Origin: Eledone cirrhosa
Lineage: Eukaryota
Direction of reading: 5' to 3'
NCBI GenBank assembly: GCA_964016885.1
Contig: OZ024741.1
Span: 385,764,001 to 385,828,000, forward strand
Length of the DNA stretch: 64,000 nt
Positions 4,442 through 28,400 of this stretch are shown here, piece by piece. Within the stretch, counting starts at the first letter, position 1; each line of letters begins with the position of its first letter. The position numbers and the translations under genes were made by a program. Under the pieces are notes generated by a model. It worked only from the letters and a program-made list of their open reading frames with translations. It was not told the origin of the DNA and searched no databases.

Positions 4442-4474
<33 letters not shown>

Positions 4475-4479
<5 letters not shown>

Positions 4480-4657
4480 AAAAAGAACGACCCCGACGGC
4501 AGAGCTCAAGCCGTTTCGACGGCTATTTCTGATCCAGAAATAGCCGTCGAAACGGCTTGAGCTCTGCCGTCGGGTCATTCTTTTTCCTATTACCCACTCT
4601 ACTACACTTAGTATTGAATACTTTGGTGCGTTATGGTTCCTTACCACAATTCCTTCG

Positions 4658-4659
<2 letters not shown>
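4475..4659 (+). repeat. Hammerhead-derived palindromic element, copy 1
   Basis: 116-bp near-perfect inverted repeat (4475-4590) plus a tail shared with the 23.7 kb copy; flanked by (TA)n. Confidence 0.75.
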
Positions 4660-4698
<39 letters not shown>

Positions 4699-23229: not shown

Positions 23230-23698
23230 GTAAATTTTCCATTGGTTTAAAAAAATATCTTGTGTATACAGTTTGGAATAGGTTCTCTATATCACTGTGT
23301 TATAAGAGGCAACAAAAACGTTGACTGCAGGAAGGGCATTTGGTTGTAAAGCAATGCCTTAACAAGAATCCCTTGATGACTATGAAGCATGGGTCCAGCA
23401 AGGCTATGGGTCCAGCAAGGCTAACCTCTATTCCAGAGAAAATGGTCTGAAAACGCTTGTTGTGTTTGTTGTTCTATAAATTTTTAATATGTATTCTCAT
23501 TGAATAGTTTTATGGATTTGATAAATAAACTATTATAGGCACAGGTATAGCTGTGTGGTTAAGTAGTTTGCTTCACAACTGCATGGTTCTTGGTTCAGTC
23601 CCACTGTACAGCACCTTGGGCAAATGTTTTCTACTATAGCCTCAAGTTGACCAATACCTTGTGAATGGAAACTGCACAAGTCAACCGTATATATATAT

Positions 23699-23890
23699 AT
23701 ATGAAAAATTTGGGGCCCCGGCTGAGCTTCTGCCATTTTAACAGCTAGATCCGAGTTCAGATCTAGCTGTTGAAACGGCAGCAGCTCAGCCGTCGGGGTC
23801 CCAAATTTTTCATATTACCCACTCTATTACCCCAAGTATTGACTACTTTGGTGAGTAATTGTCTAACTGTTTTTTGCTGCCTCCATTCTG
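23699..23890 (+). repeat. Hammerhead-derived palindromic element, copy 2
   Basis: ~115-bp inverted repeat plus attacccactcta...gtattgactactttggtg tail; flanked by (TA)n. Confidence 0.75.
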
Positions 23891-24124
23891 ATATATATAT
23901 ATATGTGTGTGTGTGTGTGTATCCCGGGTTCAATTGGGGGAAACCAAAGTAAGTAAGGTACTCAATACATCATCCTGATGATTTCCTTTGAGTGAAACAG
24001 TCCTGTAGAAGCCATTTCTATATTAAATATTATATATGTTAGGTAATTCCAAAGGAAAAAAAAAGTGCTCTATGTATAGAACAGAGCTATTTAATTAGAA
24101 AGTTAACAACACAAAATATAACTA

Positions 24125-25436: not shown

Positions 25437-28400
25437 ATACATATACATACACACACACATGCACACACATATACATATATATATACAAAATATATATAAA
25501 AATATGTGTTAGATGATTCTGAAGAGAAAGCAAAGGAAAAAACGAGTGCTTTATGTATAGAACAGAGCATTAAAAATATATAAATATATAAATATATTTT
25601 GTTGTTGAAAGAATGTGATAAAGGCAAAGGAAAAACGAGTGCTCTATGTATAGAACAGAGCTGTAAAAATATTTTGTCATTGAAAGTATGTGATAAAGGC
25701 CCAAGGTGGTAACATAAGAGAGAATGTTCAGGAAAAGATGAAGTCAAAAAGTGAATAATATGTAATCATCATCATCATCATCAACATTGTTTAACGTCCA
25801 TCTTCCACGCTTGCATGGGTTTGGACGGGAGTTTTCCCACTTGAGGCAAGATTTGTTGACTGTCTGGCGGGTTTTCTACGGCTGGATGCCCTTCCTAACA
25901 CCAACCACATTTACAGTGTGGACTGGGAGGTTTTTACCGCGTTGCCTACACGGCCACATTACAGCGTGGACTGTGTGTTTTTTTGTCGTGACACCTACAC
26001 GTCTGGTGGGTTTTCTACGTCTGGGTGCCCTTCCCAACACCAACCACGTTTACAGTGTGTACTGGGAGGTTTTTACCGTGTTACCTACACGGCCACATTA
26101 CAGCGTGGACTGTGTGTTTTTTGTCGTGACACCTACACGACTTCATTTGTTTCGGACTGGATGTTGTGGTACCAATATAACTTCACATTTAAGGAGGTGG
26201 TGTGGATGGGGTGGGGGTATTGGGATGGGGGTGTATTTTGTTAGAGGTGCCTACTGACTGTAGGTTTCGCTTTGTAGTATAAAATAAAGTAAAATAAAAT
26301 AAGTGTTGAATATATAAAGTAAGAGAGATTGTTCAAGGTAAAAGTAAGGGAAAAGAAGAAATGAATAAAATAGGTGTAATATAAAATAAGGGCTTAATAT
26401 AAGTGTTGAATGTGTGGTAAAGGTCCATAGTGTTTAAAGTAAGAGAGAGTTTTCAAGGTGTAATATAAGATAAGTGTTGAATGTGTGAAAAGGAGAGTGT
26501 GTTCTTATATGTGGGCAAATTTGATGCTGAGAAAGGAGATGAGTTCTTATGTGGGCAAATTTTAAATATCTCAGAAATAAATAGAGTTAAGACAGGTGTT
26601 GGGAGATTTCAGATTCTGTAGAATTCTATATTTTTCTGTTACGCACAAGGTACACCTTGTGCCTTTAACATATTCTTTTGATTGGTCTAAGATAGACCAA
26701 TCAATTTCATATGGGATGTCACACACTCTATTTCATCTCCCACACTCTATTTGCCAGCGCCGTAGTTTTCTTTTTATCCTGGTGTCAAAAGAAAGCAACG
26801 TGTGGATAGTATCTTTTTTTAAAGGTAGCCTGGGTAATGCCCACATAACGTTCTCCGGTAGAAGGTTGGTTGGTGTGAATAGGTCTTATAATTGCCTCAT
26901 ATACAACGGATTTGATGGTGCATTTGCCTTGCAAAGGACATTCACCTGGGTTTCTGCATGAACATCCTGGGATTCCTCTGTCAGTTTTGCCGGTGGTGAT
27001 TTTCGGTTTTATGGAAGGACTGCAAGAATAGCTAATCTTGGCACAGTTTCTGTTCAAAATTTTGTTATATTTATGATGATGGGGGAAATGTTTATCTACT
27101 AATTCAAGGAATTTTCTACCTACATTAGTTTTGAGTGCTAAAGAGAAGGGTGGTGTGAACCAGGTTATTTTTCTTTTCCTATTATTATGTGTAGAAGGAT
27201 TAGAGGAGTTAGAAATATATTTAATTTGTTCAGTGAATCTGCTATTGTTAAGGGCCTTATTATAGTAAGGGGCTGCTTTATTAAATATTTCTTCAGAAGA
27301 GGAGAGGGAAGATATCCTATGGTTAGTTTGGGATGAGGTTTTTGAATACTATGGGAGGATGGCATGATTGTTTATTTATATATTTAAGATTCTCATTAGG
27401 TTTATGGTAAGGTTTAAATGAAGCAGTGAGTAAGGCAAGGTTTATATCAAGGAAATTTATGTTGGTAAGATTAGTATCTGTAGTAATTTTAAGGTTTAGG
27501 TCAGAGAATAGTTTAATTAAATCTTTACGAAAAGTGTCGAAGTCATGGTCATTGGTGGTATGAGAGATTGCTAGTCCGTCGTCTCGATATAGCCCAATGG
27601 TATGACCTGGGAGTTTTTCCCTTATTGTGTGTAGAAGGAACAAATCGACCAAATCACACACATCAGCATTGTCAAAGGAACCCATAGAGACATCAAAAGG
27701 GTTTTCTGGGTTAGATTTTTTTACCCAAGATTCGTTTTTGGCAAAAAGTAGTTTTCCGGGCATGTAAAATTACTTACTCTTCTAAGTCGGATATATTAGT
27801 GTAATTTTTAGCGAAATCTAATGCTTTGGCTAATAAGGATTGAGTAATAGAGGAGTAGAAGTCTATTATATCGAATTGAGTGAATCTAGATCTATTTTTA
27901 TCAGGTATAATATTAAACCATGAAACTACTGAAGATGCATTGATAAAGTTCTGTTTTCTTATTTTTAATATTATATTTCTTAATATTCTTTTACTGGCAA
28001 GACCAATTTCTGATTTAGCAGGGTTAATGAGTCTACAACTAGGTCTGTTATTGAAATCTATTTTGTGGTATTTTAGTTTAATATAGGTTTTACATTTAGC
28101 TAGGCTTTCAATTCTATTATCAATTTTTAATTTACTTGCAATGTCTTTAGCTTCAATATTTATATTATTAAGGGTGTCATTTTTGGCTTTTTGATATTTG
28201 GCAGTGATGCTATCTATTAAAAAGTTGGTTATATAAATCGTTATTTATTTCATATAAGTTTTTAGTCTTATCGGAAAAAACGAACTTATTATTACAAGAC
28301 TTAATATTAGAAATATCATTAGCAAGCTTAGTTTGTGAGTGTATATGTATTTGTATATGCCTGTATGTATGTCTGTATATGTTTTTATATGTGTGTGTGT

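Follow-up and report, generated by a model that had tools for sequence, protein, structure and literature searches.

Why should two copies of a repeat differ along the stems of a long hairpin and yet stay self-complementary in each case? The question is raised by two palindromic repeats in 64,000 nt of DNA from Eledone cirrhosa (assembly GCA_964016885.1, contig OZ024741.1, positions 385,764,001 to 385,828,000 of the forward strand), a stretch referred to here as the window. A preliminary description, made from the letters alone, offered two readings, either a propagating family whose structure is under constraint or a recurrent conversion event. The answer given here is that the second of the repeats (copy 2) is an ordinary and very abundant short product of a Penelope-like element (PLE), and that this kind of insertion is already known. 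It is probably a short retro-copy in a TA microsatellite, with arms that are complementary because both were copied from one RNA stretch of ~57 nt.

The two repeats and their genomic family

Copy 2 (window 23701-23891), read directly, consists of a near-perfect palindrome of 113 nt (23701-23813) and a non-repeated tail of 78 nt (23814-23891), and it lies inside a (TA)n run, with (TA)n to its left and (TA)n followed by (TG)n to its right. Its sister (copy 1, 4477-4659) has the same design. The architecture, tail and (TA)n context had already been described as shared with a copy near 4475, and this holds: both are palindromes with a one-sided tail in (TA)n. The parts of the two copies are as follows.

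Copy 2
23688..23700, no strand: left (TA)n flank, the target microsatellite (read directly)
23701..23754, minus strand: inverted arm L (reverse complement of X), tailless where it adjoins (TA)n on the outside
23755..23813, plus strand: direct arm X (R), the last ~57 nt of the PLE pseudo-LTR
23772..23794, plus strand: conserved block inside X, namely GAAACGGC, a 9-nt loop (core GAGCTC) and GCCGTC
23814..23891, plus strand: tail (ATTACCCACTCTA...CCATTCTGA), on one side only
23892..23921, no strand: right flank, (TA)n then (TG)n (read directly)

Copy 1
4447..4476, no strand: left (TA)n flank
4477..4532, minus strand: inverted arm
4533..4588, plus strand: direct arm X (type 1a)
4589..4659, plus strand: tail
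4660..4696, no strand: right (TA)n flank

The direct arm of copy 2 starts at the GTTC of an initiator-like TCAGTTC present in a longer type 2 copy (L158), and the tail is homologous to the stretch immediately past the pseudo-LTR end in type 1 PLE copies; the tail of copy 1 lacks 9 nt that most type 1 tails contain.

Folded as DNA, 23695-23895 forms a long hairpin at -54.1 kcal/mol (z = -13.1; none of 200 shuffles was as good), and the corresponding value for copy 1 is -73.1 kcal/mol (z = -19.6). Over 144 nt, the identity between the two copies is 74%. Among 30 consensus stem pairs, 16 are common to both, 1 differs on one side and 10 differ on both sides yet are still paired; the remaining 3 are unpaired in one of the two copies through a shift in the alignment. 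The earlier statement that the stems differ between copies and stay self-complementary is thus borne out, as is the statement that GAAACGGC...GCCGTC is unchanged, both motifs being found in both copies. Over 54 aligned positions, the two arms of copy 2 show 5 substitutions, of which 4 are transitions, and one gap of 3 nt; the arms of copy 1 differ by 1 substitution and 1 base.

Taken as a whole, the earlier observation is confirmed in part; what did not stand is the claim that the inner loop is flipped between the copies. The core of the loop, GAGCTC, is its own reverse complement. Across lineages the loop reads TTGAGCTCT, TTGAGCTCA, CGGAGCTCA or AGGAGCTCA; in every case, non-palindromic parent copies included, the distance from GGC to the core is unchanged. 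The loop of copy 2, AGCAGCTCA, is a mutated form of the AGGAGCTCA or CGGAGCTCA that is usual in its family, namely a single-copy change from AGGAGCTCA; set in the same direction against the TTGAGCTCA of related lineages, it matches at 7 of 9 positions with an equal GAGCTC offset. The difference is read as a plain series of substitutions because the flipped reading needs a one-base shift and the substitution series does not. L111 (GTCGAAAC to GTTTCGAC) and L135 (a join within the inner repeat) are individual copies with a genuine local flip, which arose in the joining step and is no family trait.

The possibility that only these two copies exist is ruled out: the genome contains thousands. A query of the 3.0-Gb genome with copy 2 gave 4197 first-look candidates, the best 40 of which were scored; all are near full length, and the 39 that are not copy 2 itself are 82-87% identical to it. 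Copy 1 gave 2680 first-look candidates, and the best 40, again scored and near full length, include 39 non-self matches at 87-93%. An exact 22-mer from the tail occurs 36,739 times in the 3.0 Gb, near equally on the two strands genome-wide (18,356 and 18,383), compared with 0 for the reversed control, and for a 23-mer specific to type 2 tails the count is 316 + 304. The tail is followed by (TA)3 or more in 56 of 60 unselected loci, as against 373 of 2400 background windows of 50 nt.

Several minor observations concern the target. Palindromic stubs of different lineages are often adjacent in one (TA)n or (GA)n run (L009:~1725-1780, L012:~1440-1500), which suggests that one microsatellite may be hit repeatedly. 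The tail-bearing loci L161 and L162 (C1:55970263 and 55987933), separated by 17.7 kb, have identical flanks over at least 175 nt, and look like a local segmental duplication, not two insertions. In the window, another interspersed repeat lies at 23532-23670 on the plus strand, ~17 nt to the left of the (TA)n in which copy 2 sits; a search of the genome with it gave 2769 first-look candidates, and its 39 scored non-self matches are 78-85% identical. By eye it resembles the head of a tRNA-derived SINE, and ARAGORN called no tRNA in it. Some of its other copies also end in TA-rich runs, and the target microsatellite of copy 2 may be the tail of this repeat itself.

A Penelope-like element as the source

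The source of X and the tail can be followed in an unselected type 1 sample, the first 30 tail matches on contig 1, which amount to 29 elements (L127 and L128 being two tails of one element). Four of the 29 (L115, L122, L134 and L136) run on upstream of X into shared sequence with no turn-back, as judged over the ~170 nt viewed. L115 forms part of a longer locus, L141, which has a decayed frame with RT-like and GIY-YIG-like motifs upstream of X and the tail and, further upstream, an inverted partner. A protein search with this frame gave 66,057 first-look candidates, and on that count the PLE family is a major component of the genome; 95 candidates were scored, 94 of them non-self at 86-88% identity. 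Many of these have open frames of 784 aa, and some are in tandem with a period of 3542 bp or are head to head. At G000 C1:91474740-91486659, four PLE copies stand in tandem, 3542-3543 bp apart, each with an open frame of 784 or 786 aa, and several head-to-head pairs were seen at other places.

X and the tail also lie inside intact PLE copies that have an ORF of 717 aa, where they are contiguous with the element. The order in one of these, L150, is:

746-755: TATA-like box
776-833: arm sequence X
834-915: tail
1006: ATG, with the ORF extending to 3156

On the 3' side of this ORF the first ~790 nt of the locus are repeated, forming a pseudo-LTR. In an intact type 1 copy, then, X lies ~30 nt after the TATA-like box, at an initiator-like motif, with the tail next and the ORF ~90 nt later.

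The 717-aa ORF appears to be of PLE type, a view that draws on one BLASTP match, leads from Atlas clusters and the architecture just described. In Pfam, the intact ORF matched no family even at E <= 1, and pieces of the decayed ORF matched nothing. BLASTP of the 717-aa ORF against a PLE ORF of the same genome that is positive for Pfam GIY-YIG (PF01541) gave E = 3e-7, with the YxDD and IY..YIG motifs aligned, and the nearest named Atlas clusters, which serve as a lead only, carry GIY-YIG, RVT_1, HTH_animal and DUF8422. Two sets of loci were considered as partners and rejected, the best 30 for GIY-YIG and 10 that have long open frames; they belong to other PLE families, and X or the tail occurs there only as a chance neighbour. 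The window itself has, at 26731-28329 on the minus strand and ~3 kb from copy 2, a fragment of a different PLE ORF with 34-45% protein identity to the 717-aa ORF of L150 (tblastn). In six public runs of unspecified kind, from three organisms, 43-82% of the sampled words of L150:650-1150 are present.

Could the repeats instead belong to a DNA-level element (a MITE, a foldback element or something Helitron-like), or could replication or repair at (TA)n have made the palindrome after insertion? Copy 2 and its relatives share with MITEs and foldback elements, as with pre-miRNA hairpins, a long perfect hairpin, a high copy number and TA-rich targets, and the hairpin is close to one end. Helitrons end 3' in a CTRR motif, which the ...CTGA at the 3' end of type 2 recalls. 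However, no terminal inverted repeats span both ends; in their place there is a non-repeated tail of ~70-85 nt on one side, and a target-site duplication would be masked inside (TA)n. Moreover, the sequence belongs to an RT-encoding element, the copies form a 5'-truncation series typical of reverse transcription, and the same boundaries recur at thousands of loci, unlike accidents after insertion. Both forms of this proposal are exceedingly improbable. Readings of the ends by eye as a Helitron or a pol III SINE were dropped once X and the tail had been placed in the RT-encoding element, and inspection by eye for pol III A and B boxes found none that was convincing.

The origin of the covariation

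Lack of significant covariation among the stems is ruled out: across 26 palindromes, RNAalifold finds 30 pairs, 16 of which have changes on both sides. Strong covariation of this kind, together with the very stable folds of copies 1 and 2 and a set of Rfam matches to miRNA hairpin families that fall below threshold, would suit a self-propagating hairpin (a structured RNA, a pre-miRNA-like gene or a SINE) with stems under selection and true compensatory evolution between subfamilies. The Rfam scores, however, are all far under the gathering thresholds; the miRNA precursor families (mir-3913 and others) reach at best 46.7 bits against a threshold of 100, a likeness of hairpin shape only. At the gathering threshold Rfam finds 0 families in the whole window, and a permissive scan of 23650-23950 returned only sub-threshold miRNA-hairpin look-alikes and no hammerhead. 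The asymmetric tail, the RT-encoding partner and the 5'-truncation series also set these repeats apart from pre-miRNA hairpins.

Evidence against selected stems also comes from copies that have no hairpin. The outer-stem variants are also found, single-stranded, in long non-palindromic PLE copies of the matching lineage, where there is no partner arm, and the lineage variants of X occur in both arms of the short copies. When the 38 rows of a tree built from X plus tail are labelled as palindromic or long, 6 label changes are required, equal to the number for shuffled labels, and at least 3 of the 6 are forced by well-supported branches. The tail phylogeny that had been proposed as a check on monophyly thus gives no single palindromic clade: palindromic copies are scattered across all lineages, and the nearest neighbor of copy 1 is a long PLE copy, L115, at 93%. 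The two arms of one copy also resemble each other more than arms of different copies do. In type 1 they share 45 variants, compared with 10.7 +/- 3.6 (maximum 23 of 500) when arms are paired across copies, and in type 2 they share 35, compared with 15.9 +/- 4.7 (maximum 30). Finally, the arm comparisons of copies 1 and 2 given above indicate that individual copies decay without compensation, and the centre of the palindrome is hypervariable. A self-propagating, selected hairpin is therefore largely refuted, and we regard it as very improbable.

Considering that the variants are single-stranded in long copies, that the palindromes are polyphyletic and that decay goes uncompensated, the covariation is no sign of constraint; it is most likely a mechanical by-product of how each copy is made. 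Complementarity would then be fixed at insertion and not maintained by selection. The long-copy variants, the scattered tree, the variable centre and the unequal lengths of the arms (see below) all argue that each insertion most likely produces its arms afresh. The preliminary interpretation is thus partly supported. A propagating family under structural constraint has the evidence against it; of the recurrent conversion event, the idea that the palindrome is remade each time is favoured, the event itself being read as PLE retro-insertion. Because both arms copy one template, the covariation of this long hairpin, however striking, is not a pointer to a functional RNA. This removes a false lead and calls for caution in covariation-based RNA discovery in PLE-rich genomes.

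The palindrome centre and the mechanism of insertion

The copies range from short to long. At the long end, L141 is a 4.6-kb insertion with the order (TA)n, inverted PLE copy, direct PLE copy, (TA)n. The inverted copy begins at residue 329 and the direct copy at residue 166. Both reach the X end, but only the direct copy has the tail, and the left end of the insertion is tailless; the arms measure ~1.9 kb and ~2.7 kb. L158, of type 2, has arms of ~150 nt. Classes of architecture were assigned by eye to 57 unselected elements (29 type 1, 28 type 2) out of more than 36,000:

Palindrome plus one tail: 15/29 type 1 (104-134 nt); 15/28 type 2 (~96-140 nt, one partly resolved)
Shorter, unequal or rearranged arms: 3/29 type 1; 5/28 type 2
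Inverted arm joined directly to the tail: 2/29 type 1; 1/28 type 2
Two tails: 1/29 type 1; 1/28 type 2
Long copy, running on upstream of X within the ~170 nt viewed: 4/29 type 1; 0/28 type 2
Long-armed palindrome: 0/29 type 1; 1/28 type 2
No inverted arm seen: 4/29 type 1 (simple 5'-truncated); 5/28 type 2

Short copies are the commonest class in these samples, and an inverted arm is present in 21 of the 29 type 1 and 23 of the 28 type 2 elements. The reading of copy 2 as a retro-copy is supported both by the contiguity of X and the tail with PLE sequence and by the layout that the long insertions share with the short ones. Junctions of the X end with the tail and of the X end with (TA)n are found 2742 and 2776 times, respectively, in one lineage. 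For 49 of the first 100 tail junctions, an exact inverted partner lies no more than 200 nt away, at spacings of 26-169 with a mode of 101 (16 of the 49).

Not all copies are so regular. Arms are unequal or the direct arm is absent in L117, L135, L131, L119, L137, L159, L164, L183 and L141, and some of this inequality could be due to later deletions. Two tails are present in L038, L127/128 and L156/157, and some junctions lie at short homologies (GCCGT in L135, ACCC in L119 and L127). The arms of L038, L042, L050 and L125 differ at lineage-diagnostic sites within one copy, which fits either two RNA templates or later mutation. In L130 a run of ~18 T occupies the palindrome centre, at the junction of the two arms. 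An apparently heritable asymmetry (GGG in the R arm and GGGG in the L arm, in ~11 of 30 type 1 matches) was judged an ascertainment effect, since the query has it, selection of best hits enriches for it, and it is absent from the complete R arms of 30 unselected loci.

The bases at the very centre vary between copies, but the arms end at one place. Counted from the A in TCA/TTA-GTCC, the R arm of type 1 starts at a position from -3 to +5 in all 42 palindromes that were scored (one more has no anchor), and the L arm usually stops 2-5 nt earlier at the centre, with its end at +5 in 21 of 39 copies. The A in question is ~30 nt after the first T of the TATA-like box (counted by hand in L115). In type 2, the lineage of copy 2, the arm starts within TCAGTTC, and the one longer copy inspected, L158, has no clear TATA box. 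From this spacing we infer that the palindrome centre probably corresponds to the 5' end of an RNA made from the pseudo-LTR promoter.

How might such a copy be made? The template would be a short RNA that begins at the start site in the pseudo-LTR, contains X and the tail and ends in a (UA)n flank; alternatively, the 5' end of the full transcript would serve. Cutting of (TA)n by the endonuclease would leave two DNA ends as primers, one acting at the (UA)n past the tail and the other at the AU-rich boundary between X and the tail, which reads ..CCTATTA.., ..CATATTA.. and ..CATATAA.. in three lineages. Synthesis of both cDNAs would continue as far as the 5' end of the RNA, and a template jump or microhomology would link them head to head. 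The product would be a palindrome centred on the RNA start, with a few variable bases, whose arms would decay independently once inserted. LINE-1 twin-priming inversions, reportedly described by Ostertag and Kazazian in 2001, are said to arise when both ends of the target break prime, giving an inverted 5' part. The two processes would be alike in that both ends of a target break prime reverse transcription; they differ in that the two LINE-1 cDNAs cover different parts of the RNA, which yields an inversion, whereas here they would cover the same part, which yields a palindrome.

The notion of two separate priming ends is supported by the unequal or absent direct arms, the two-tailed copies and the junctions at short homologies. 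Tentatively, the short palindromes, which number in the tens of thousands, might be a single-nucleotide record of PLE integration, with the centre marking the capped 5' end of a short RNA and the outer ends marking two priming sites, a proposal that we regard as possible but somewhat doubtful. If it is true, PLEs prime the same RNA stretch from both ends of a broken TA microsatellite and have seeded more than 10,000 perfect 50-bp hairpins, which could feed RNA editing or small-RNA pathways where they are transcribed.

The same element and the same RNA could also give palindromes by self-priming. The first cDNA would reach the RNA 5' end, fold back and copy itself, the endonuclease would nick the boundary between X and the tail, and the hairpin would open into an inverted duplication with a one-sided tail. 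Arkhipova et al. (2013, PMC3846280) favour this route for palindromes at PLE inverted junctions, and Craig et al. (2021, PMC8557442) ascribe the tail to endonuclease resolution. In the present family, the L arm that is usually 2-5 nt shorter at the centre, with +5 in 21 of 39 copies, is what a tight loop would give; short equal-armed palindromes do exist (L126, L087), and paired junction spacings of 26-28 nt also fit. It is harder to see how self-priming could produce arms that are often unequal or lack the direct member (nine copies, including L141 at 1.9 vs 2.7 kb), the two-tailed copies (L038, L127/128, L156/157) and the copies with arms of different lineage type, and we consider it unlikely. 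Two priming events or self-priming is the question at stake for the stubs, and these, being numerous and sharply bounded, could help to settle how PLEs build inverted repeats and tails. Whichever way they are made, many perfect hairpins in TA microsatellites may affect assembly, genome stability and the load of double-stranded RNA.

The insertions described here have close counterparts in print. In the sections of the two accounts drawn on, PLE insertions are frequently 5'-truncated, include a truncated copy in inverted orientation, have a tail at only one end and favour (TA)n targets (PMC8557442); palindromes where the inverted copies meet, and a pseudo-LTR with a TATA box and an initiator, are described as well (PMC3846280). 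The present family shares the inverted truncated copy head to head with a direct copy (L141; 21/29 and 23/28 of the unselected elements), the tail at one end only, the (TA)n target (56/60 loci vs 373/2400 background windows), a partner in tandem and inverted arrays, and variable palindromic junctions; its promoter layout recalls the TATA-plus-initiator arrangement in the pseudo-LTR of Adineta Pen2a. It also has a partner with RT and GIY-YIG endonuclease that shares the terminal sequences (from the BLASTP match and the Atlas leads, with no Pfam match), and pseudo-LTRs or partial tandems (the 3542-3543 bp spacing and the ~790-nt repeat of L150). Set against the same published sections, the differences are that the dominant product here is a stub of ~190 bp with arms ending at one sharp point, the predicted RNA start; that the tail is ~70-85 nt long compared with 30-40; and that no canonical hammerhead was found and the partner ORF is unrecognised by Pfam. 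The preliminary description knew of no account of either of its forms. As far as those sections go, the PLE architecture is in print (PMC8557442, PMC3846280), but no description of the sharply bounded short palindromic form was met with in the literature passages searched, among them passages of PMC13282606 and of a 2026 retrozyme preprint.

Animal non-LTR retrozymes, as presented in the portions of PMC7229834 and bioRxiv 10.64898/2026.07.22.740005 used here, are likewise small, non-coding, derived from PLE termini and presumably moved by PLE enzymes. Those occur as tandem repeats, have active type I hammerheads and form circular RNAs, whereas the copies considered here are dispersed and palindromic, with no detectable hammerhead and none seen in tandem; the tandem repeats with type I hammerheads that define retrozymes are thus absent from the copies seen.

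According to the part of Craig et al. (2021, PMC8557442) that treats them, hammerheads are universal in C-terminal-EN PLE clades. The pseudo-LTR hammerhead of the canonical clades of this kind (Penelope/Poseidon, Neptune, Nematis, Hydra) was not found in the present family, which is therefore placed in no clade. Rfam gave 0 matches at E <= 1 on the intact copy L150, the pattern CTGATGA..GAAACGGC..GCCGTC gave 10 matches in 3 Gb, none convincing as a ribozyme, and a simple scan for hammerhead cores in 30 GIY-YIG loci gave one chance-like match. By eye, L150:728-833, and likewise L122 and L158, have a degenerate hammerhead-like layout around the predicted start, split by a long insert. Its order is CCCC; a box of the CTGAGAAG or CTTGAGAAG type, which departs from the core box CUGANGA; CGGCTA; an insert of ~45 nt; TAGCCG; TC-GAAAC; GGC..loop..GCC; GTC; and GGGG, and it is the ~45-nt insert that holds the TATA-like box and the start.
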